The notes under the pieces: generated by a model
The model's input: only the letters and a program-made list of their open reading frames with translations
The model's database searches: none
What the model was told of the DNA's origin: nothing
From: Bacillota bacterium
GTDB taxonomy: Bacteria; Bacillota; Bacilli; Bacillales; Cytobacillaceae
Assembly: GCA_023387295.1 (NCBI GenBank)
Contig: JAEWIG010000054.1
Span: 12,510-44,509, forward strand
DNA: 32,000 nt
Reading direction: 5' to 3'
Program-made: the position numbers and the translations under genes
Shown here: positions 1 to 10,432 of the stretch, piece after piece
How the letters are laid out: every line of letters begins with the position of its first letter
Numbering within the stretch: position 1 is the first letter of the stretch

Positions 1-2028
1 CTGATCACGAATGATATCTTGTACTGATTTTGGTAGTTGACTTACATTACGTTGTTTTACATATTTACGAATCTTCATTGCACTTTCTAAATCTTCATAA
101 TAGGAGCTATCATTTAAAACAACAATAGCTTGACCTGACGATTCGTTCAGTAATCGTAGTTCCAATTTATCAACTGCATCCGTTGCTACAGTTAAGAATT
201 TTAGTTTCATACCTCCTGTAGCAGCCCCTACCGTAATCCCATCTACCATTTGGTCAAATGCAAAGTCATATTTTCCATAACGATATTTCTTAGTTATATA
301 TATATCTCCATAAATCATATGTGCAATTTTTTCTACAATTGCTGCGGTATCAACATTGGTATCTTTTATTTCTTTTTGGATATCTTGCTCTTCATCTGTT
401 AAGAAATTATAAGTATCTCCTGTTCGCGCAATATAATTTTGGCTCATTAAACGATTAAGAGAATCTCGAACTGCTTCTCTCATTGTAATCTTGTCCATGC
501 GTATATCATCTGCCATAAGAATTGCTATATTATCGATATTCGCCTTGATATCATCAATGTATCGAATGAGATATAATAATTTCAATACATCAACATCTTG
601 TTCTTCTATTCCATTGCCATCAGCTGCTGCACGAGAACATCTCTCAATAACACGACGAATGCTACCATCTAAGAATGTATGCACAGTATCATAAAAATGG
701 AAAAATGGAACTAGGGCAAACTCATCTTTATCTTGTATCTTTTGCACTGCTTCCTGGAAGCCCGAAAGCATAGAACGCTCTCCACCAGATAAATGCTTAC
801 CAGAGTTACCATGTTTTCTGATTTCAGCAAATACTTTCTGCATAATAATAAATTGATATGGTACAAATGGGAAGTTAACAACAAATTCGCTTGGTCCAGT
901 ATATCCTTTTATGTCTAAAATTGAATCTGAAAAGCTAAATAAATTTCTAAGTACGGAATCATTATTGTTATATACCTGTTCTAAATCACTCATTACCTCA
1001 GGTTTTTTCTTAAGAATACGCTTTTGTATCACTTCATCTACGGAAGAAGAAGACAAACTGAGTCTAGTTTTGAAACGTGCCTGAATTCTTGAGAATTCAT
1101 CCGCGCGTACTTTGATTATCTCATCAATTGCTTCCTGTCCGGTACACATAACCCATACTTTTCCTTTACATTCACTACCTATTTTTTCAGTTAATGATTG
1201 AAGATTTAATAACATATCTGTATCTGTACCAACATATTGTCCAACCTCGTCAATCATGAATAGCAGACGGAAATTATCTGGTTTTGCATTAACATATTCT
1301 TCCATCTCGGAAACTAATTGAGCAATACTCATTTCCGTCGTTTCCGTACCATCAAACCAGTTACGAGCAGCTGTTTCACTCATCCCAAGCACTTCCATTA
1401 ATGTTTCCACAACATCATCTTCAAAAAAAGCAAAAGCATCTCGTGTCTCTAACCAGCTAGATCCATTCTTATCTTCAAAAACACGACGGAATTCTTCTGT
1501 CTTGCCACGCTTTTGAATAAACTGTTCTAATTTTGCTACTTTTAAGTTCTCACCATAAAAGCCAAGATGATTATAAAACATCTTGGCAAAGACACGAAGT
1601 ACTGCTGTCTTATCTTTATTAATTGGGCCTTCAATATCTATATTGAAAAGAATCGTCTCTGTCTCTCCCTTTGTTGCTTTATCAATCAACATAAAAGTTG
1701 CCGGATCATCTTCGAATTTCTTACGGAAACGTTCTACTGTCTTCACACCATTTACATCTTTATTTTTTAATGTATAAGAAAGCATCTTAAGGAAATGAGA
1801 TTTACCGCTTCCAAAGAATCCCGAAATCCATACCCCAATATCAGCAGTGGCTTCATCAAATGAATCACTATAATAGTTAAAGAAGGTAATAAAATGCTTC
1901 TTTAGTTCTTTGGTGATTACATATTCATTTAATTCTTGTTCCAGCACATCATCAGCAGATTGATCCACCTTAATAACACCATTAATTTTACGGTTAATAT
2001 CATCTGTAAACATCTCACGTATAATCAT
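1..2028 (-). CDS. brxC: BREX P-loop ATPase BrxC/PglY, N-terminal 676 codons (3' end beyond the left window edge)
   Basis: Absent from the ORF track because it has no stop inside the window. The minus strand from ATG 2026-2028 (SD GGGAGGAAA, 13 nt after the brxB stop) stays open to position 1. The translation reads MIIREMFTDDINRKINGVIKVDQSADDV ... GVWISGFFGSGKSHFLKML (Walker A) ... FRLLFMIDEVGQYVG (Walker B-like). The N-terminal INGVIKV motif, the P-loop and the position after brxA-brxB fit BrxC. Confidence 0.85.
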   Translation of the reverse strand, partial: MIIREMFTDDINRKINGVIKVDQSADDVLEQELNEYVITKELKKHFITFFNYYSDSFDEATADIGVWISGFFGSGKSHFLKMLSYTLKNKDVNGVKTVERFRKKFEDDPATFMLIDKATKGETETILFNIDIEGPINKDKTAVLRVFAKMFYNHLGFYGENLKVAKLEQFIQKRGKTEEFRRVFEDKNGSSWLETRDAFAFFEDDVVETLMEVLGMSETAARNWFDGTETTEMSIAQLVSEMEEYVNAKPDNFRLLFMIDEVGQYVGTDTDMLLNLQSLTEKIGSECKGKVWVMCTGQEAIDEIIKVRADEFSRIQARFKTRLSLSSSSVDEVIQKRILKKKPEVMSDLEQVYNNNDSVLRNLFSFSDSILDIKGYTGPSEFVVNFPFVPYQFIIMQKVFAEIRKHGNSGKHLSGGERSMLSGFQEAVQKIQDKDEFALVPFFHFYDTVHTFLDGSIRRVIERCSRAAADGNGIEEQDVDVLKLLYLIRYIDDIKANIDNIAILMADDIRMDKITMREAVRDSLNRLMSQNYIARTGDTYNFLTDEEQDIQKEIKDTNVDTAAIVEKIAHMIYGDIYITKKYRYGKYDFAFDQMVDGITVGAATGGMKLKFLTVATDAVDKLELRLLNESSGQAIVVLNDSSYYEDLESAMKIRKYVKQRNVSQLPKSVQDIIRDQ

Positions 2029-2041
2029 CTAAATTTCCTCC

Positions 2042-2599
2042 CTAAATCACATTAAAAGCTCTATAATAATCATTTGGCTTCAATTTATCAAATAATTTTG
2101 TATGATGTCCATCAAATACCCCTGGATAGAAAACTAATACTGGAATATCTGAAAAATGTGGTTGTAATGCTTCTAGTAAAGAGTGCACTCTCATAAAAGG
2201 ATATACTTCCCCTACGCCTGTAAGTACTAATACATCACCCATTTCGTGTGGATCATACTGCATCTTATCTATAAAAGCTTGTTCTGTTGCAATGGAATGC
2301 ATTTGATTCAATAAATACTCTTTACCCTTTTTCTCTTCCATCTTTGGAATACTTTTTGTAATACGTTTATCATCACATATGGTAATAAAGGTTTCATATA
2401 AGTTAACAATTCTTAAGTGGCATGTTAAAGAATGATCTGTTTTTATCTGTTCTATGAAATGCCTAATGATCATTTCTTCATTTGGTTCGTAACAAAAGAA
2501 TTGTATATTAACTTCATTACTTAAGCCCTTACCTTCTAAGAAATCTTTACTTTGTATTAATTCTCTTACTTTATCTAAACGAGATTTTATATTCTCCAT
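2042..2599 (-). CDS. brxB: BREX protein BrxB (DUF1788-like)
   Basis: 185 aa. ATG with a GGAGG SD 6 nt upstream. It sits 12 nt after the brxA stop and 13 nt before the brxC start. Size and synteny (brxA-brxB-brxC) fit BrxB. The assignment rests on gene order plus recollection of the family. Confidence 0.75.
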   Translation of the reverse strand: MENIKSRLDKVRELIQSKDFLEGKGLSNEVNIQFFCYEPNEEMIIRHFIEQIKTDHSLTCHLRIVNLYETFITICDDKRITKSIPKMEEKKGKEYLLNQMHSIATEQAFIDKMQYDPHEMGDVLVLTGVGEVYPFMRVHSLLEALQPHFSDIPVLVFYPGVFDGHHTKLFDKLKPNDYYRAFNVI

Positions 2600-2611
2600 C
2601 TCTTACCTCCA

Positions 2612-3217
2612 TCATAGAAAACAATTAAATGCCGGCAATGTTATTTCATCATTATTGCATCTAATTGCATTCTCCAGTGCATTATTGATCAGTACCGGAT
2701 TTAATTGTTGTGCCTTCCCAGAGTCAAGATAATCATTTTCTATCAATATTCTTTTAATCACTGATTTCATTTTTTTGATCGTAGACTCTTTCCACTCTGC
2801 AACAAGATCATCCTGTTCTTGTAAACGCATGAAAAATACATTAATATCCCTATCACTGAAAGCGAAATCCATTTGTCTAAACTTTTCTCCTATCACTGTA
2901 ATCATGAATTCCCACATGATACGATTTTGCTTCATTATTGCATACAAGCATACTTGCTTAGAAACCTCAACGGGTGAATCAGCAACAACCTTTATTAAGT
3001 CCCTATCATCCATTGCATGTAAGCGTTTCAAACATACACTAGCTATATTTTTAAGCATTCTTTCTGTGGGATATTGAAACAAATTTTCACTAAAAACTTT
3101 TAAGATGATTTCTTCATCTGTAAGTCCTTCTGCAATTAATTTTGCAACCGTCCTTGTTTCATAAAACAGAAACTGCTCTCTTGTTAAAGATCCATTATAA
3201 GGTACTGAACTATCCAT
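2612..3217 (-). CDS. brxA: BREX protein BrxA (DUF1819-like)
   Basis: 201 aa, all-helical-looking. It is the first structural gene of the brxA-brxB-brxC series, and its start overlaps the stop of the upstream HTH gene by 8 nt. Size and position fit BrxA. Confidence 0.7.
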   Translation of the reverse strand: MDSSVPYNGSLTREQFLFYETRTVAKLIAEGLTDEEIILKVFSENLFQYPTERMLKNIASVCLKRLHAMDDRDLIKVVADSPVEVSKQVCLYAIMKQNRIMWEFMITVIGEKFRQMDFAFSDRDINVFFMRLQEQDDLVAEWKESTIKKMKSVIKRILIENDYLDSGKAQQLNPVLINNALENAIRCNNDEITLPAFNCFL

Positions 3218-3467
3218 TTTTACGCTTCCCTTCGATGCTTAATTTCATTTGCACTACCTCTTTAGTTTCAGGTAAGATTTCAACTATCTCATCTAAGGTA
3301 CAGTCCATCTTCCTGCATATCCTCACTAGTATTTCCATTGAAACAAATTCGTTATGTGAAAGTTTAGCAAGTGTGTTTTGGCTAATTCCTACAAACGTAG
3401 CAAACTCTGTTTTCTTTAGGTTTTTATCTATTAATAACTTAAATAGTTTGTTGTAGCATACATCCAT
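3210..3467 (-). CDS. Small XRE/Cro-CI-type HTH transcriptional regulator, translationally coupled to brxA
   Basis: 85 aa. LFKLLIDKNLKKTEFATFVGISQNTLAKLSHNEFVSMEILVRICRKMDCTLDEIVE is a classic XRE helix-turn-helix layout. AAGGAGG SD upstream. 8-nt overlap with brxA. Confidence 0.8.
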   Translation of the reverse strand: MDVCYNKLFKLLIDKNLKKTEFATFVGISQNTLAKLSHNEFVSMEILVRICRKMDCTLDEIVEILPETKEVVQMKLSIEGKRKNG

Positions 3468-3497: not shown

Positions 3498-3521
3498 AAT
3501 ACACTTAATAAGTGTATTATA
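3498..3521 (-). promoter_or_regulatory. Candidate BREX operon promoter -10 box overlapping a 21-bp perfect palindrome (putative operator)
   Basis: AATACACTTA-A-TAAGTGTATT has 10-bp perfect arms (3498-3507 and 3509-3518). On the minus strand an extended -10 (TGATATAAT; TATAAT = 3516-3521) overlaps the right arm. The site lies about 30-50 nt upstream of the HTH gene start. Confidence 0.5.
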
Positions 3522-3799
3522 TCATAGTTAGATGTGAGAATAAAATTATTTTCTTTGTATTTGCAAAGTTTTTTAATATGTATGCGGTGATTTTGTGTTA
3601 ATCTGTTCTGTCATGTTAAGCTATATCTTATCTCATTCTTATTAATTCAACTTTATAAAAAATATGATAATCATCCATTTCAGCAATAAAAAAGAACCAA
3701 AATAGAGAATTACTCCCCCATCTTGATTCATATTGTATTCATCTAATAACACGACGTTTATCATTCTTCTCCCAATCCAAATAAAGGATCCTCAATAAA

Positions 3800-5083
3800 T
3801 TAGTAGAAATCATCCATATTTGCCCGATATTCTGCATCCATCTCTGCCTTAAATTCATGCATTTGATTTAAGCAAGCATCTATATCATCCAGAGCATTAT
3901 TAATAGACTCAAAAAAATTTCCAACATGAATAAAATCAAATCGTTTATTGCTTTTAAAGTAATGTTCCATATTTTTAGAAACTGGATAACGAAACTTACT
4001 AGCATCTGAATCGATATTATGAACTTGCCTACAGTAATCTTCTATAATTCCAAGATATTCTTTATCATCTTCAGATTGAGCATATTCTAATAGAAAAGGC
4101 TCTATCTCATTCCACATACCAGAAATACTATGTTTCCTGTCTAGTAATACTTTACATCTATTTTGAAAATTCTCACCTGTCTCTTCGAACCAAATTGTCT
4201 TCAAACTTAACTCTACACAATTCCGATATAAATAACACATGGGCATAAACAGAAGATTCTTTATTTCATTATTCCCAGCTTCCGTCTTTTTTTTCATATA
4301 CCATTTTAGATAATTTGCTGTCTCATGATAAGCTTTGGTATATGGGTAAAAATCTTCCCTCAGATAGCCATATCCAACTACAGATTGGCTATAATAATAC
4401 CCACCTTCCTCTATAAACATTGGATGTAATTTCTTCCATTCTTCTGCTTCATTTTCGTCTTGTACATACCACTTATCAATAATTTCAAACGCAGCTTCAA
4501 ATTTATTTGCAAACTTCACCAAATCAATATGGGTCTGTTTTTCAAACACTCTTTTTATGTTAAATTGTCCACCTAACCCCCACTCATCCTCTTCCCAATA
4601 GATATGAAATGGATATCGGAAAGAATCCGATTCCTTATCCATAACAGATATATCAGTAAAATATTGTTGTAACCATTCTAACTCTTCCATTGGTCTCAAA
4701 TAGGATGCAACTTGTTCAACTGCTGATAGAATTTTTGATAAATCATGGAAAGTTTCCTTGAGAAATTCCTTACGTTCTTCCCTATCTAGTATATATTTAA
4801 ATCCTAGTGCTTTTAATCCCAACTCAATACTGTGCCTATATAAAAAGGCTAATGAAAAGAAATATGTATCTAGCTGAGCAATGTTTGAATTATCCGTTTC
4901 AAGAAGATAGGATGTAACTAAATGTGCCGCATATTTAAAGTTTCTAGCATATGAATAACATTCTGAGGAAATCTCAGTTGACGCTATAATTCGAACCAAA
5001 TACTCTGAGTGTCTATCAAACTTATCTAATATAGTATCCTTTTCTGGATACATATTAGATAATAATCTTTCTGGTGTGTTCAT
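3800..5083 (-). CDS. Hypothetical 427-aa helical protein made of two tandem homologous domains (unknown family)
   Basis: The track ORF is 464 aa, but ATG 5081-5083 (MNTPERLL...) has a good SD (AGGAGAG) and the upstream extension has none. The two halves align: aa ~40-205 versus ~245-405. Shared motifs are LYRHSIELGLK/LYRNCVELSLK, FHDLSKIL/KHSISGMW and DSFRYP/SKFRYP. Confidence 0.7.
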   Translation of the reverse strand: MNTPERLLSNMYPEKDTILDKFDRHSEYLVRIIASTEISSECYSYARNFKYAAHLVTSYLLETDNSNIAQLDTYFFSLAFLYRHSIELGLKALGFKYILDREERKEFLKETFHDLSKILSAVEQVASYLRPMEELEWLQQYFTDISVMDKESDSFRYPFHIYWEEDEWGLGGQFNIKRVFEKQTHIDLVKFANKFEAAFEIIDKWYVQDENEAEEWKKLHPMFIEEGGYYYSQSVVGYGYLREDFYPYTKAYHETANYLKWYMKKKTEAGNNEIKNLLFMPMCYLYRNCVELSLKTIWFEETGENFQNRCKVLLDRKHSISGMWNEIEPFLLEYAQSEDDKEYLGIIEDYCRQVHNIDSDASKFRYPVSKNMEHYFKSNKRFDFIHVGNFFESINNALDDIDACLNQMHEFKAEMDAEYRANMDDFY

Positions 5084-5240
5084 TGTATTCTCTCCTAATA
5101 TATTCTTATTTAGCAAGCAGGGCAAGGTTGTACACACCTTGCAATTTTGTGCTTGTTGGGGAAGCCCCCAATTCCCTCTATTACCCCAATACATGCATTG
5201 CCATATATCTAAAATATAGTATGTATCACATTAAAATCAT

Positions 5241-8180
5241 TTACAATCTTCTATTTTTTCGAGCACACTCCGTACATACACCAGTATTAACTTTATTAAT
5301 CCCGCCATAACTATTAAAATAATCTACCAATTTTATACCATCACACTCTTTACATTTAACCCAACGTTGTCCACTAGAATCAATGATACATTGTTGTTGC
5401 TGAGTGAACTGGTCTTTCACTTCATTATAACACCTTCTCAGATGTTCTTCTTTGGCCAATTGTCGCTCTCGTTTCTTTTGTTCTTGTGCATCTTGCTCTT
5501 CTCGAATTTTTTCTTCTATCTCTTTCTTAATATCCATTTGTCTATTAATTTCTATTCCAAAGCGTTCACGGTATTCTATTTCCTGCTCATTCAAAATCAC
5601 TGGTGCACTACTAATTATGTAGTTACCAGCTTTATCACTTGATAATACTTGTCTTTCAATAGGTACTATCTCATCGACAAAAGTTGTTTGCTTTTTATCA
5701 TTTGTAAGAACATATAATTTATTTTTAGCTCTTGTCATTGCTACATAAAACAGTCTACGTTCCTCCCGATACTTATCCATAGCACCAGCCGAATCATGAA
5801 TAGTGTTTATATTAACAGATGGGAATACACCATCATATACATCCATTATATAAACTGTATCATATTCTAATCCCTTACTTGAATGAACTGTGGATAAAAT
5901 AATAGTAGCATTTTTTGACGTAGCATTTTTTTCTATCATTTTAGGTAGTTGTTCCAACCGTTTTAAAAATGCAAGTTGTTTTGGCTCTTGTTCTGCTAAT
6001 ATACGTAATAATTCAATTTTACTTTCATCCATAGAATTCTTTTGTAGGTACTGTCCATAACCTTCAGAACAAATATAATTAATTGCAGAAATAGAATTCT
6101 TTCCTTTTAACCTATTTAAAAAAATTTCAAAATCTTCAGCCTTATCTAATAAACTCGGCCAACGTTCTAGTTGCTTTTTCAAAGCATCTGTTACAGAAAT
6201 CCGATTCCAACGGCTATTTTTACATGTCCACTCTGCTGTTTTTTTATTAAAACCATATCCACATTTATAATATATCTTCATAAAAGACTCTGTATCAAAA
6301 GGATCTATAGCAAGCTTCATAAAAGCTTTGATATCATCAACTATTTTATAAGTAAAAAAATTTGTTTTTATTTGTAATACTTTAAATTGAATTTGATTGC
6401 GAATTAATAAATCCATTAAAGGAATCGCAAGATCATTATCACGATATAAAATTGCTGTTTTCTCCTTGTTGTTATAAGCGACATCTAACAAATACTTATA
6501 CTGTTCATAACGATTGGAGAAAGAAACTCTTTCCACTGACTCTCCATGACCTCGATTTGCAACCATCGTCTTCTTATTACGCTTTAAATCATTTTCAATA
6601 AATTTCTGTGCTGTATTAACTATTTCTTCCGTAGAACGATAGTTACACTCCATCATTAGTACAAATGGATTCCTATATTTGTTTTTGAAATTGAGCAATG
6701 CCTTTGGATAAGCACCACGAAATCCATAAATACTTTGATCCTCATCTCCAACCATAAAGATATTGTTATTTCCAGTAAGCATATGGATTATCTTATGTTG
6801 AATTTTAGACGTATCCTGTGCTTCATCAACACAGATATACTTATACTGATTTTGAAATTCGTGAAGTATATCAGGATGTTTCAACAGTATTTGATGGGCA
6901 TATACCATTTGATCATCAAAATCCATAACTTTCTTCTGTCTCAAAGTTTCTTTATATATCTGAAATATTCTCGCAACATTTGGAACAGATGTATCTAACA
7001 TAGTAATTTCATCGTTATTCAACATCATATTTTTTATGTAACCAATTGCAACCTCTGTTTCAATCACATCGCTTTCTGTTGGATATTCATCATTCACTTG
7101 TTTATAAATATTTTTGATAATTTTTGTTCTTTCCTTATTATCAAGCTGATTAAATGGATTACGTGAATACCGGTAGATAATACTGTTACTGATACTATTG
7201 ATAGTCCTAAACTGAACTCTATTTGCAAGTTCTGGACCAAATAGGCTTGAGAAGCGTTTTTTCATATCTTCCGCTGCTGCTGTTGTATAGGTCATTGCCA
7301 AGATGTTATCTGGTGAAATCCCTTTACAAATAATCATGTATCCAAGTCTTACTACAAGCACTGTAGTTTTCCCACTCCCCGGAACTGCAAGCAACAGATT
7401 TGCTCCCTCTACTGCTTGTACCGCTCGTTCCTGTTGCTTATTTAGTGTAATCCAAAATTTCTCAGCAAACATTTTATACATTTGATTTTCGTAGATATCT
7501 TCACGATCCGGGCCTTCACAAATTCCATTTACCAGTCCTAGATACTGCATAAATTCTTCTTTACTAAATCTTTTCGATGTTTTAAATCTTTCAAATCCTT
7601 CGGGTGAAACGTCAACTATCTTCGCAAGACAATCTTCCTCATTATCACGTATCTGAAAAAATAATTCAACCTGCCCACCCAGAAAATCAAAGTTATTAAA
7701 TGTTTTTCGTGGATGTGTCCACTGATAAGATCTACCCTCTTCTCCATCTGTACGTATTAGTTGCCCATTCATATATGCATCAATCTGATCAAATACCCAG
7801 ATTACTTTGTAACCCAGTGATTGATAAAAATTATTTCGATTATTAAACTGTGTAATAGATAAGGAACTATGTTGAAACTCAACGACTGTCCGACCAATCA
7901 ATATATCTGCACGATGTCTTGTTTCCCCCCAATTAAGAATTACTTCCTGATTATTTTTAGGAAATCTACTTTGCCATTCGAAATGCCATGCTGACATATC
8001 ATATTCTCGTTCCCAACTATCAGTACATAAATAGGATGGTTGATGTGAAAAATGATGTTGACGTACCTCACCTTTTCTTTGTATTAAGGGTGCTCCACAA
8101 GATGGGCAGTAATAGTCACGCTTGGTGATTGTATCATCAATAAATATTCTATTGTGATTTTCATCTAATGCTATTAACAT
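5241..8180 (-). CDS. Fusion protein: N-terminal CoiA-like (PD-(D/E)xK-type) nuclease with CxxC finger, UvrD/Rep/PcrA-type SF1 helicase, K/E-rich coiled coil, C-terminal CxxC...CxxC zinc ribbon
   Basis: 979 aa, GGAGG SD. N-terminus: YYCPSCGAPL...HHFSH...HRADILIGRTVVEFQHSSLS...GYKVIWVFD (CoiA-like pattern). Helicase motifs: AVPGSGKTT (I), ICVDEAQD (II), MVGDEDQSIYGFRGA (III), NYRS (IV), TVHSSKGLEYDTVYI (V), LFYVAMTRAKNKLYV (VI). C-terminus: CKECDG...(21 aa)...CTECARK. Confidence 0.85.
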   Translation of the reverse strand: MLIALDENHNRIFIDDTITKRDYYCPSCGAPLIQRKGEVRQHHFSHQPSYLCTDSWEREYDMSAWHFEWQSRFPKNNQEVILNWGETRHRADILIGRTVVEFQHSSLSITQFNNRNNFYQSLGYKVIWVFDQIDAYMNGQLIRTDGEEGRSYQWTHPRKTFNNFDFLGGQVELFFQIRDNEEDCLAKIVDVSPEGFERFKTSKRFSKEEFMQYLGLVNGICEGPDREDIYENQMYKMFAEKFWITLNKQQERAVQAVEGANLLLAVPGSGKTTVLVVRLGYMIICKGISPDNILAMTYTTAAAEDMKKRFSSLFGPELANRVQFRTINSISNSIIYRYSRNPFNQLDNKERTKIIKNIYKQVNDEYPTESDVIETEVAIGYIKNMMLNNDEITMLDTSVPNVARIFQIYKETLRQKKVMDFDDQMVYAHQILLKHPDILHEFQNQYKYICVDEAQDTSKIQHKIIHMLTGNNNIFMVGDEDQSIYGFRGAYPKALLNFKNKYRNPFVLMMECNYRSTEEIVNTAQKFIENDLKRNKKTMVANRGHGESVERVSFSNRYEQYKYLLDVAYNNKEKTAILYRDNDLAIPLMDLLIRNQIQFKVLQIKTNFFTYKIVDDIKAFMKLAIDPFDTESFMKIYYKCGYGFNKKTAEWTCKNSRWNRISVTDALKKQLERWPSLLDKAEDFEIFLNRLKGKNSISAINYICSEGYGQYLQKNSMDESKIELLRILAEQEPKQLAFLKRLEQLPKMIEKNATSKNATIILSTVHSSKGLEYDTVYIMDVYDGVFPSVNINTIHDSAGAMDKYREERRLFYVAMTRAKNKLYVLTNDKKQTTFVDEIVPIERQVLSSDKAGNYIISSAPVILNEQEIEYRERFGIEINRQMDIKKEIEEKIREEQDAQEQKKRERQLAKEEHLRRCYNEVKDQFTQQQQCIIDSSGQRWVKCKECDGIKLVDYFNSYGGINKVNTGVCTECARKNRRL

Positions 8181-8256
8181 TTAGTACCTCCATAAAAAGC
8201 AAAATCTAATCGTCGTAAAATATAATTCTCATATTTATTTGTATGATTTTCATCAA

Positions 8257-8862
8257 TTATCGTTCAATATCTATATTAAATAAGGGTAGGAGTTCCCCTA
8301 TCGCTCTATCTTCTAAATAAAATCGATTTGCCGATTCTAAATCACTATCCAACATTACATAGGACAACCCAACATTATGTAAAATTAAGTTTCTACTATC
8401 AGCTTCTTCTAAAAACATTCTTTCAATACGGTCTCTCATCTGATTACTACTGGTTTTTCTATTATCAGAAAGCGCATTTTTACCCATACTTAATCCTCGT
8501 TTTGTTTTCAATTGAAGATGTAGACCTAATCTATTCTTTAGGCTATCTGCTGTCTTTCCAACATACAGAGGTATATTCCCATTTACTTGAATTTGTTGAA
8601 TCCATTCATCGGTAAACTCAATTTCAACAATTCTTCCATTTGGCCCTTTAAAACTAATAACTCGATTCACCTTATTATTCATAAAATCACTTAATGTTCC
8701 CGTCCACCAAAAAATATAAACACCCCCTGAATTAGGTATTATATTTGGTTTCAATCTGTAATCACCATTAGATAGATGATCGACAATATCTAAAAGATTC
8801 TTATGTTTAAGTTCCGTAAGGCATCTCATTCCATCATTAATAGTAGCTATATCTAGTTTCAA
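8257..8862 (-). CDS. GIY-YIG superfamily nuclease-like protein with a ~40-aa insertion between the GIY and YIG strands
   Basis: Motifs: GGVYIFWW ... PLYVGKTADSLKNRLGLHL ... RFYLEDRAIGELLPLFN (UvrC-type GIY / YVGK..L..R / E....P.FN pattern). The likely start is TTG 8860-8862, preceded by GGGAGG at 8-nt spacing. The track's ATG 8886 lies upstream of that SD. A TATAAT -10 lies at 8904-8909 (minus). Confidence 0.7.
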   Translation of the reverse strand: MKLDIATINDGMRCLTELKHKNLLDIVDHLSNGDYRLKPNIIPNSGGVYIFWWTGTLSDFMNNKVNRVISFKGPNGRIVEIEFTDEWIQQIQVNGNIPLYVGKTADSLKNRLGLHLQLKTKRGLSMGKNALSDNRKTSSNQMRDRIERMFLEEADSRNLILHNVGLSYVMLDSDLESANRFYLEDRAIGELLPLFNIDIER

Positions 8863-9043
8863 CTTGATTACCTCCCTTGTGTACAATTGTATTTCTAATC
8901 AATATTATACTAATAAACGCTTGTTAATACCATATTTTTCATGTAACATCATGTTATTTCTACATAAAAATATGTTTAGTGCTATTCAATTTTGCGTTCT
9001 ATTCCATTCCATAAGCTTCACTGTACTCGTATCCATAGAGGAG

Positions 9044-10432
9044 TTATCTATTAATTTTTTCAGTTATATACTTTTTATCTGTCACTATTAAGGTCTTAAC
9101 ATTTGCCTTAATAACTCCGATTTCTTTACTTTCTTGCTTCAAACTTTTATGTTTATTATAAACGTTACTCTTTTCTTCTCCTAGCTTTGTATACTCCTCC
9201 CTTAATTCCTTCACCTTCGGTATATTCTTTCCTACCTCCACAATTTTCTCTTTAGCCGCCTTATGCAATAACAGTTCCTCCACATGTTCCTCATAAAACT
9301 CCTTATTAAACCCAGACTCCCGATACTCCAGATAAACCTCCCTAGTCTTTGCATAATTTACAATATGCTTCTGCAACTCCCTATTCTCCTTCATCTCTTT
9401 CTCAATCTCCTTAAGCCTACCAGACACCTCATGAAACTCTCGATTCACTTCCTGTACCTTCTCCTCCAACTCTTCCAAACTAGTAATATGATTCTCCTCC
9501 AGATAATTTAATGTCTTAGCCATCTGCTTTAGATTAAACACCTTCGCCCATCTCTCATATCCAGGTCCCTTACCCGCCTGTAATTTTGCCTGAATATCTA
9601 CGATCAGATTAACCTTCTTCTCAACCCTAACACATTTCTTACCAGTCCTTTTAATGCTCTTTTCTCCACAAATTATGGCCCTAATATCTTCTTCACTAAA
9701 CCCATCCCGTAATGATCGTAACCGAATGAATTTCTTCTGCTCTGCATCCTTAAACGAAACATACTTTCCTCGTTTCACTTCATACCCATTCAGCTCCATC
9801 CGATATAAAAACTCGTCAAAATCTTTTAGTCTACTTTTTAATACCTCTTCTATCACATACCGCAACTTCTCCGAATAACTAACTGTCTTCTTATCTCCCA
9901 ACCACTTCCCATAATGCTTACTACTCTGCTTTGGATTCTCAATTATCGATAACCCATTTTCCAAACAAATAATATCCGATACTCTCCTTACTGCCTTCCC
10001 AGAACCTAAAAAATCTCTGAACTTTTTAGTACAGTTCAGAGATGTAGAATTAAATATAATATGATTATGTATGTGTGCCTTATCCACATGTGTTGCTACA
10101 ATAAATGCATGATTTCCTTTTGTAAATCGCATGGCAAGTTCATATCCCACCTTATTCGCTAGCTCAGGGGTAACTTCCCCTGGCTTAAAGGATTGTCGTA
10201 TTTGATAAGCAATCACGTTATTTTCCTGTTCACGGCCAGTAATATGGGTGTATTGTCGTTTGGATAGGAGGAATTCTGACTGCACTGTCTTTGGATCACA
10301 CGCATAGGAACTAATGTATTTTCCCTCCGATGTCTTATCTGGATTTTTTGCATACTCCGTCCGATCCTCAATACAAGAAGCAATGGATTTCCCTTTGTTT
10401 TGATGCATTGCAATAAAACGTGTGGTTGCCAC
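9044..10432 (-). CDS. MobA/VirD2-family conjugative relaxase with C-terminal coiled-coil region
   Basis: 462 aa. GTG start with AGGAGGG SD 6 nt upstream. The N-terminal relaxase fold motifs include the histidine triad THVDKAHIHNHIIFN. Confidence 0.9.
   Translation of the reverse strand: MATTRFIAMHQNKGKSIASCIEDRTEYAKNPDKTSEGKYISSYACDPKTVQSEFLLSKRQYTHITGREQENNVIAYQIRQSFKPGEVTPELANKVGYELAMRFTKGNHAFIVATHVDKAHIHNHIIFNSTSLNCTKKFRDFLGSGKAVRRVSDIICLENGLSIIENPKQSSKHYGKWLGDKKTVSYSEKLRYVIEEVLKSRLKDFDEFLYRMELNGYEVKRGKYVSFKDAEQKKFIRLRSLRDGFSEEDIRAIICGEKSIKRTGKKCVRVEKKVNLIVDIQAKLQAGKGPGYERWAKVFNLKQMAKTLNYLEENHITSLEELEEKVQEVNREFHEVSGRLKEIEKEMKENRELQKHIVNYAKTREVYLEYRESGFNKEFYEEHVEELLLHKAAKEKIVEVGKNIPKVKELREEYTKLGEEKSNVYNKHKSLKQESKEIGVIKANVKTLIVTDKKYITEKINR

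Follow-up and report, generated by a model that had tools for sequence, protein, structure and literature searches.

We analysed a 32,000-nucleotide stretch of DNA from a member of the Bacillota (contig JAEWIG010000054.1 of GenBank assembly GCA_023387295.1, positions 12,510 to 44,509 of the forward strand), referred to here as the window, and its own numbering is used throughout. Between positions 9044 and 31282 the window contains the backbone of a Clostridia-type conjugative element, with genes for ParA/ParB, a T4 coupling protein, a VirB4/TraG-like ATPase, VirB6/TrbL, an NlpC/P60 hydrolase, DUF5688 and a MobA/VirD2 relaxase, together with an ArdC-like polyprotein (ArdC-N/LPD16/YodL). At one end are three cargo units, all on the minus strand: a pair of genes coding for a 209-residue protein and a helicase, a gene for a 427-residue protein composed of two tandem helical domains, and a helix-turn-helix (HTH)-BrxA-BrxB-BrxC operon. 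Since a conjugative element makes up the rest of the window, we regard these defence genes as cargo of an integrative and conjugative element (ICE); the GC content of the cargo is 0.32, compared with 0.37 for the backbone. Our subject is the middle gene, which we refer to as the tandem-HEPN gene since the data support the assignment of both helical domains to the HEPN-T-like class.

The tandem-HEPN coding sequence occupies 3800..5083 on the minus strand and translates into 427 residues plus a stop codon at 3800-3802. An upstream ATG at 5194 opens a longer, mechanically called reading frame of 464 residues, and this was dropped in favour of the ATG at 5083 on the basis of homologue N-termini and the ribosome-binding site. 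The closest homologues, P0001 and P0002, begin MNTPERL at the same start, and a Shine-Dalgarno-like AGGAGA was read off the sequence at 5091..5096 (minus strand), 7 nucleotides before the start codon. The gene coordinates in an earlier reading of this DNA made without database searches (the original prediction) are therefore right.

That reading also described the protein as an internal tandem duplication of a helical domain marked by three motif pairs. All three pairs are found at the places it gave, with LYRHSIELGLK (residues 81-91) and LYRNCVELSLK (285-295) offset by 204 residues, FHDLSKIL (112-119) and KHSISGMW (317-324) by 205, and DSFRYP (153-158) and SKFRYP (362-367) by 209. The duplication was borne out by BLASTP, by shuffling and by profile-profile comparison. 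BLASTP of the N-terminal against the C-terminal half aligns 184 columns at 21% identity with an E value of 2e-9, and the Smith-Waterman score of the repeat is 121, compared with 35.7 +/- 6.1 for 2000 shuffled sequences, none of which reaches it (0/2000; maximum 67; z 13.9). A family profile was also made for each half from 60 homologues, and hhalign matched the two profiles over 155 columns with a probability of 97.5% and an E value of 5.3e-12. At the level of sequence this confirms that the 427-residue protein consists of two homologous helical modules of about 165 residues, with a similarity far beyond chance.

An AlphaFold2 (AF2) model of the full-length protein computed on the family alignment has a predicted local distance difference test (pLDDT) score of 88.7 and a predicted TM-score (pTM) of 0.89. 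The same succession of secondary-structure elements is seen in both copies in this model, as expected for a duplicated module: a long helix, a second long helix, two short helices, a further helix, a loop with a beta element, and a last helix. The pTM value indicates that the packing between the domains is defined, as far as a predicted model can do so.

The first repeat spans residues 36-210 (4454..4978, minus strand) and is delimited by the BLASTP and hhalign self-matches, a match to Pfam family PF05168 and the AF2 secondary structure. Following its FRYP motif is a 29-residue segment containing a beta-hairpin, and across the family the length of this segment is bimodal, being either 15-16 or 23-33 residues. 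An inter-repeat linker (residues 211-243; 4355..4453, minus strand) carries a conserved FIEEGGYYYSQSVVGYGY beta segment, and it leads into the second repeat (residues 244-408; 3860..4354, minus strand), which is defined by the same self-matches and by Foldseek matches of a repeat-2 model. The protein ends in an acidic helical tail, HEFKAEMDAEYRANMDDFY, encoded at 3803..3859 (minus strand); it is helical in the AF2 model and is common to single-domain relatives of the protein. Within the tail coding region Tandem Repeats Finder (TRF) reports a 24-nucleotide tandem repeat of 2.1 copies at 3811-3862, encoding AEMDAEY and ANMDDFY.

Conservation was examined in 73 diverse full-length tandem relatives, extending down to about 20% identity, and the features given below by this criterion are all on the minus strand. 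In repeat 1 the second helix contains the motif R83-H-S-I-E87-L-G-L-K91 (4811..4837), an R-x3-E-x3-K arrangement that includes an Ex3[KR] motif, and nine columns are invariant in the repeat: D72, R83, E87, L88, K91, H113, D149, F155 and R156. The invariant H113 (4745..4747) lies N-terminal to the Arg motif and is, judging from its conservation, a candidate alternative catalytic His. The Arg motif itself is F155-R156-Y157-P158 (4610..4621), in which we take the Arg to be the equivalent of that in the Rx4-6H motif of HEPN domains; position 157 is Tyr in 63 and Phe in 10 of the 73 relatives, and P158 is conserved in at least 90%. The corresponding elements of repeat 2 are R287-N-C-V-E291-L-S-L-K295 (4199..4225), H318 (4130..4132) and F364-R365-Y366-P367 (3983..3994). 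Here E291, H318, R365, Y366 and P367 are invariant, and R287, K295, D358 and F364 are conserved in at least 90%, with Arg at position 287 in 68 of 73, Lys at 295 in 72 of 73, and Asn at 288 in 65 of 73. The Arg that precedes the Glu by four residues (R83 and R287, followed by H/Q or N) is an extra feature specific to this family, and from helical periodicity the Arg, Glu and Lys of each motif are predicted to lie on one face of helix 2. H113 is located 43 residues upstream of R156, and H318 is 47 upstream of R365.

When both repeats from many members are placed in one alignment, the Glu, Lys, His and Phe-Arg positions are invariant and the Arg, Leu, Asp, Tyr and Pro positions are conserved in at least 90%. 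Because mean pairwise identity is 0.30 for one repeat and 0.28 for the other, both appear to be equally constrained in sequence, and neither is a decaying copy. Whether the Arg, His and Arg-Tyr positions are retained in both repeats was a check proposed with the original prediction, and the R/E/K, His and FRYP residues are indeed invariant or nearly so in both.

Several lines of evidence support the assignment of the two modules to HEPN-T-like domains of the AF0298 type, with an alternative motif set. The only family that Pfam matches in the protein is PF05168 (HEPN), which scores 25.0-25.6 bits (cut-off 22) over residues 78-146, in repeat 1. PF05168 is also matched by 22 of the 73 diverse tandem relatives and by 10 of 35 single-domain relatives (counted at E<=0.05-0.1), as well as by one of seven very distant relatives, and it is the sole recurrent Pfam family among them. 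The HEPN fold is an up-down bundle of helices in which an insert separates helices 2 and 3. A second AF2 model, of repeat 2 only (residues 240-412; pLDDT 84.8), was compared with the PDB using Foldseek, and HEPN structures account for nine of the top 50 matches, including those ranked 1, 2, 3, 5 and 6. The HEPN matches include 2hsb, 4nqf, 3o10, 1ufb, 7bxo_D, 1wol and 6m6w_H, with 7bxo_D and 6m6w_H being HepT structures; the first-ranked, 2hsb (AF_0298), has an E value of 0.14 and a probability of 0.91, and the TM-score normalised to the target (TMt) is 0.56 for 3o10 (sacsin HEPN) and 0.60 for 1wol. The Pfam signal in repeat 1 and the fold signal in repeat 2 are individually weak, and their independent convergence on one clade suggests that both repeats belong to it. 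A merged repeat profile also has a sub-threshold similarity to the N-terminal helical domain of FusB/Far1 (2mzw, 4adn), with E values of 0.09-0.4, which we rejected as noise, the motif residues not being conserved. No match to a well-characterised family of unrelated function was found, and neither this nor any of the other three outcomes named with the original prediction as refuting it came about.

The conserved residues can be compared with those described for HEPN domains in general. Many HEPN families carry an Ex3[KR] motif upstream of Rx4-6H (PMC3710099, section 6), and the tandem protein has it twice, as E87-x3-K91 and E291-x3-K295, with little or no variation among relatives. In HEPNs of the AF0298/AbiV type the His of Rx4-6H is missing, and an alternative active site could be built with another strongly conserved His that lies nearer the N-terminus (PMC3710099); correspondingly, the motif Arg is kept here (R156, R365), its His is absent, and the upstream H113 and H318 are invariant. 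The statement in the original prediction that there is no canonical Rx4-6H motif was correct, and we attribute its absence to an alternative configuration of the AF0298/AbiV type. The label 'inactive' is kept for HEPNs without conserved charged or polar residues (PMC3710099). The proposal of a HEPN-like duplicated module is thus supported by the recurrence of PF05168, the repeat-2 structural matches and these AF0298/AbiV-type motifs.

The tandem family is large. There are 344 close relatives in a database clustered at 90%, nearly all of them about 425-435 residues long; Hungatella, Blautia and Desulfitobacterium are among the Clostridia from which they come. Of 1.84 billion cluster representatives searched exhaustively with a hidden Markov model, 2749 match at E<=1e-3, and 562 do so at E<=1e-10. 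The two-repeat architecture, in proteins of about 385-430 residues, is kept down to about 20% identity, and the family is found mostly in gut Clostridia and in Bacilli. Among named records all are annotated as 'hypothetical protein', with the exception of one single-domain relative that is a HEPN domain-containing protein in UniRef. The gene was found in 0 of 50,697 phage records and in one of 2.9 million viral contigs, and given these numbers it is unlikely to be a phage-borne anti-defence gene.

A separate family of single-domain proteins of about 200-230 residues has the same motifs, and the part of the tandem protein to which it aligns is confined to residues 215-427 (100% probability and an E value of 3e-42 in hhalign). 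The alignment to the tandem family begins at residue 215, and the single-domain proteins open with the same FIEEGGYYYSQSVVGYGY beta segment found in the linker. They range well outside the Bacillota, with hosts in Planctomycetota, Chloroflexota, Pseudomonas, Eremiobacterota and Bacillaceae. From these alignments the tandem protein looks as though it arose by the joining of a diverged copy to a stand-alone domain, and the stand-alone relatives presumably homodimerise. Two relatives have additional domains. A metagenome-assembled genome of Candidatus Bipolaricaulis (L062:4822-5703) encodes a single-domain relative that is preceded, in one continuous reading frame, by a HicB-like antitoxin domain at the N-terminus (PF15919; 28.1 bits, cut-off 27), and another relative, P0305, is 352 residues long and bears TPR repeats; these fusions may hint at regulation.

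To place the gene in context, its surroundings were sampled at about 36 homologue loci, a survey made with no background control. The neighbours vary greatly. A TIR protein adjoins the homologue in an ICE-like region of Hungatella (L001:11359-12402), an SNF2 helicase, a SEC-C protein and serine recombinases adjoin it at a prophage end, and in an island bounded by an integrase the integrase lies upstream and a 1446-residue Metallophos protein downstream. One defence island contains a radical SAM protein, CTD7/MC3/LmuB_C proteins (Lamassu-like) and a HamA-helicase (Hachiman). Elsewhere the homologue is accompanied by SIR2 and helicases (loci L016 and L017; L016:4783-7761), by an AAA5-VWA pair upstream and an unannotated 220-residue reading frame followed by a Gp49/HTH toxin-antitoxin (TA) pair downstream (L018 and L019), and in Desulfitobacterium by Wadjet JetABCD and a TerB/BrxD-like/helicase module. 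Plasmid-borne homologues lie near three TIR genes in Priestia (L021:5688-7748), a type I restriction-modification system in Mesobacillus and an AAA ATPase pair in Peribacillus. Among 115 flanking reading frames from 23 further species-representative genomes, no Pfam family is present in more than three loci, and the PADLOC families represented include MADS, PARIS AriA, AbiLi, Septu PtuA, SspC, AbiEii and several PDC candidates. The single-domain relatives have similarly varied settings, including Tn7 cargo with AbiH and AbiU2, a position by Mrr and a caspase-like protease, and a prophage site just before terminase. The association of homologues with defence islands and mobile elements, which the original prediction left to be checked, is thus seen at the sampled loci.

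Two recurrent arrangements were noted. In one subclade (L009:9372-13712, L010 and L011) a giant Metallophos protein of 1446-1453 residues is encoded 58-79 nucleotides downstream of the homologue, together with a 439-470-residue protein; this arrangement recurs on three separate contigs, after a tyrosine integrase, and these three genes may constitute a locally linked module. TIR or SIR2 proteins (NADase-type) directly adjoin the homologue in three independent loci. These TIR and SIR2 neighbours are not detectably homologous to one another, and their adjacency probably reflects co-location in defence islands and not a module.

BLASTP comparisons among the neighbours at 16 loci were all negative, and on these comparisons and the Pfam census a conserved partner gene was rejected. 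No MNT nucleotidyltransferase gene is present in the window or in the approximately 36 homologue loci. On the upstream side, comparison of eight loci revealed no conserved DNA, and there is no Rfam match and there are no repeats; an RNA antitoxin or regulatory RNA was rejected on these grounds. Because the neighbours differ, neither a partner nor upstream DNA is conserved, and the gene has its own ribosome-binding site and is followed by a terminator-like hairpin, we conclude that it is an autonomous unit that moves among defence islands and the cargo regions of mobile elements. This favours one of the two roles raised in the original prediction, that of an independent single-gene defence or abortive-infection factor, for which the defence islands and the lack of a conserved partner provide contextual support. 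The other, as a third component of the adjacent nuclease-helicase pair, is unsupported, as the neighbours differ in every other locus.

The terminator-like hairpin, with its T-run, is at 3684..3729 (minus strand), 3' of the tandem-HEPN gene and ahead of the HTH-brxABC operon; reading along the minus strand (3729-3684) it precedes the promoter region of HTH-brx, where a promoter-like TATAAT region is seen on the BREX side at about 3515-3530. The gap that separates the tandem-HEPN gene from the helicase gene is 157 nucleotides (5084-5240), as had been stated, and it contains no strong terminator 3' of the helicase gene. Inside it is a promoter-like TTGCCC-17-TATATT (5097..5125, minus strand), a weak consensus match at 9 of 12 positions. 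Promoter-like sites in the region are no more numerous than in shuffled sequences, and we mention this as a possible promoter of the tandem-HEPN gene and nothing firmer. The gap also includes a hairpin with a 7-bp stem (GCAAGGT...ACCTTGC) at 5122-5142, which is without a T-run on the coding (minus) strand and is not conserved at other homologue loci.

The flanking genes are those named in the original prediction, with a CoiA-nuclease/UvrD helicase upstream and HTH-BrxA-BrxB-BrxC downstream. The upstream two-gene unit occupies 5241-8886 on the minus strand and encodes the 209-residue protein (8257-8886) and a 979-residue protein with a CoiA N-terminal and nuclease domain, a UvrD/GajB-like helicase core and a Cys-rich C-terminus. 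The 209-residue protein has no match in Pfam, PADLOC, NCBIfam or PHROGs, and its GGVYIFWW...LYVGKT segment is GIY-YIG-like by eye; the two genes are possibly an uncatalogued nuclease-helicase defence pair. On the other side, the start of a BREX system (1-3467, minus strand) consists of an Xre/HTH_26 regulator (85 residues, VanU-like) that overlaps the start of brxA, followed by BrxA, BrxB and BrxC; the N-terminal 676 residues of BrxC are inside the window and the remainder lies beyond its edge. No CRISPR array is present in the 32-kb window.

Taking together the observed duplication, the conservation of motifs in both copies, the affinity to HEPN, the autonomy of the gene and its location in defence islands, we consider it moderately probable that the protein is a pseudo-dimer of HEPN domains within one chain, which serves by itself as an abortive-infection RNase and travels as ICE cargo. 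Each copy would contribute the R-x3-E-x3-K stripe on one face of helix 2, a His, and the Arg of FRYP, with the invariant His, which is predicted to sit at the start of the helix after the insert, substituting for the missing motif His. HEPN RNases as a rule form a single active site, independent of metal, at the interface of a homodimer. The fused halves would here pack as an intramolecular pseudo-dimer such that one polypeptide supplies the whole RNase site. By analogy with HepS, Tha, ApeA and DARNA, the protein may be made in a latent form and switched on by an infection cue, either a phage protein or nucleic acid, and the activated enzyme would cut cellular RNA (tRNA, rRNA or mRNA), stopping translation and aborting the infection. 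For the intramolecular composite site, the RNase chemistry, the trigger and the abortive outcome we lean here on established HEPN biology. AbiV is a proven RNase in the same structural neighbourhood, and its family likewise departs from the canonical motif, which shows that non-canonical variants can be active.

A number of points weigh against this proposal. The canonical Rx4-6H motif is absent: across the family the position four after R156 (H160 here) is variable (S/K/N/H/G and others), and there is no conserved His after R365. The PF05168 match is marginal, as the whole-protein score passes the cut-off and no individual stretch does. None of the HEPN structural matches is significant alone (best E 0.14; TMt 0.4-0.6), and Foldseek comparison of the full-length model with the PDB and BFVD gave only spurious long helical alignments with TM-scores below 0.2. 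Searches of PDB sequences by phmmer and hmmsearch, using the protein, the family profile or the merged two-repeat profile, returned no HEPN entry. Some HEPN-T domains are non-catalytic binders. Finally, a defence role is deduced from the neighbourhood alone, and some loci have housekeeping neighbours.

An explanation that we regard as possible, if unlikely, is that the protein is a tandem HEPN-T with the same fold but no catalysis, whose task would be to bind RNA or some nucleotide ligand and not to cut RNA. It could then be a sensor or adaptor, or a regulator, for instance of a system next to it, or it could sequester a phage RNA. TIR and SIR2 proteins make or consume nucleotide signals in other defence systems, and their presence as immediate neighbours in three loci would be in keeping with a ligand-binding role. 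The lack of the canonical His is also consistent with it, as is the view that nucleotidyltransferase-fused HEPN-T domains and the human sacsin HEPN are binding modules (PMC3710099). However, invariance of the R/E/K/H/R-Y set in both copies to about 20% identity is more like that of an active site, and there is no conserved partner for the protein to regulate.

The two copies may also have divided their labour, making the fusion an asymmetric sensor-effector and not simply a covalent homodimer, with the N-terminal copy serving as the trigger-recognition half of a composite site bearing the R-E-K/H/R-Y set. A further idea is that the protein has some chemistry other than bulk RNA cleavage, such as cutting or binding of a nucleotide signal, to which the TIR or SIR2 neighbours in three loci might point; we think these readings rather improbable. 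The C-terminal copy closely resembles the stand-alone protein, as shown by the hhalign match above, whereas divergence is seen in the N-terminal copy, which in half of the family has the beta insertion of 23-33 residues after FRYP. If this were true, the protein would be a minimal immune protein of two HEPN domains that needs no guide and is activated in a new way.

It is decidedly improbable that the gene is an addiction or stabilisation module, in which a HEPN toxin would be held in check by an antitoxin yet to be recognised (a small protein, an RNA or autoinhibition in cis) and would serve to maintain the ICE, prophage or plasmid, not to defend against phage. Its occurrence on ICEs, plasmids, Tn7 cargo and prophage ends would suit such a role, as would the fusion of one single-domain relative to a HicB-like antitoxin domain and the frequency of TA modules (ParE/Phd, Gp49/HTH) among the neighbours. 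There is, however, no conserved adjacent small reading frame or non-coding element and no MNT partner, and the neighbours are mainly dedicated defence systems. In practice addiction and defence roles overlap mechanistically.

We give still less weight to the prospect that the domains are not HEPN at all but belong to an unrelated duplicated helical bundle, with the likeness to PF05168 arising by convergence or chance. Each piece of evidence is individually weak (Foldseek E of at least 0.14, a Pfam score of 25 bits, no PDB sequence match), and the FusB/Far1 match of the domain profile is equally weak at E 0.09. Against this, independent weak signals converge from Pfam for repeat 1 and Foldseek for repeat 2, the Ex3K - His - R-Y-P order and the helix topology match HEPN-T specifically, and PF05168 recurs in 22 of 73 and 10 of 35 relatives with no other recurrent family.

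That the protein is a third subunit of the 209-residue and CoiA-nuclease/UvrD-helicase pair, or a BREX accessory, is very improbable and already largely refuted by comparative context: it adjoins both systems on the same strand with no strong terminator in the intervening 157 nucleotides, and a UvrD-like helicase lies beside the homologue in L016/L017, but about 35 other loci are without an adjoining 209-residue, helicase or BREX homologue, the L016 helicase and its 217-residue neighbour have no BLASTP similarity to the pair in the window, the terminator-like hairpin splits the gene from the HTH-brx operon, and the single-domain relatives also occur alone.

The proposal of a single-chain pseudo-dimeric RNase can be set against what is known of other HEPN proteins. 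The HEPN-T clade (PF05168), which includes A. fulgidus AF0298 (2hsb), T. thermophilus TT1696 (1ufb) and sacsin (3o10), has the same helix order, an Ex3[KR] on helix 2, and an Arg motif that lacks its own His but is preceded by a conserved one. Its members are single domains of about 120-150 residues, often paired with or fused to MNT nucleotidyltransferases, whereas the tandem protein has two fused, larger copies of about 165 residues and no MNT partner. It also adds the Arg four residues before the Glu and a D-x-x-S-D-x-F-R-Y-P loop, and the overall similarity is at the limit of detection. AbiV, a Lactococcus abortive-infection HEPN that is both a proven RNase and a defence protein, has 2HSB, 1UFB and 3O10 as its nearest structures, all of which were matched here as well, although the Pfam HEPN_AbiV model does not match the tandem protein. 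For AbiV/AbiF, which are type III TA-like, an RNA element is expected, but none is conserved upstream, recognised in Rfam or present as repeats here.

HepS, ApeA, Tha and DARNA (PD-T7-3) are lone HEPN genes of prophages and defence islands whose products are latent until a phage cue, and then cut tRNA or other RNA to bring about abortive infection. They have one HEPN per chain, in contrast to two in the tandem protein, and HepS and DARNA have canonical Rx4-6H motifs and form homo-oligomers, a tetramer for HepS and a dodecamer for DARNA. Identity with DARNA/PD-T7-3, a 456-residue HEPN protein, was ruled out, as DARNA has an R117x4H122 motif and a Pds5-like C-terminal domain and there is no PADLOC match here. 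Among PADLOC-DB v2 families (including PD-T7-3/DARNA, PD-T4-2, ApeA and Abi) there are no matches at E<=0.01, and there are none in NCBIfam or PHROGs. HepT/MntA is likewise a HEPN toxin in mobile and defence contexts; it needs an adjacent MNT antitoxin and an Rx4HxY motif whose Tyr is AMPylated, both of which are missing here.

Cas13 (type VI CRISPR) has two HEPN domains in a single chain, which together make up one composite RNase site. Cas13 is about 800-1200 residues long and crRNA (CRISPR RNA)-guided, with R-N-x3-H motifs and a CRISPR array alongside, whereas the tandem protein has 427 residues, non-canonical motifs, no guide and no array in the window. In the literature on tandem, dual or double HEPN defence proteins we found only Cas13, Las1 and Swt1-type cases. 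What appears from the sequences to be new is a fused, guide-less two-HEPN protein with a predicted AF0298-type alternative catalytic set, belonging to a large unannotated family that has a widespread single-domain sister family; the effector class itself is familiar, and the function we propose is drawn from context.

Few effectors of prokaryotic immunity are as common as HEPN RNases. The characterised stand-alone proteins HepS, ApeA, Tha, DARNA and AbiV have one HEPN per chain, with HepS, DARNA and AbiV forming homo-oligomers, and a compact protein that combines two HEPN domains in one chain and has a non-canonical catalytic set would enlarge this defence repertoire. Recognition of the family would also be a gain for annotation, as thousands of cluster representatives are currently without a PADLOC, NCBIfam or PHROGs model. 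The single-domain and fused forms would offer a natural matched pair in which to consider how HEPN active sites are assembled and gated, and they bear on the possible rise of two-HEPN effectors such as Cas13 from Abi-type ancestors.

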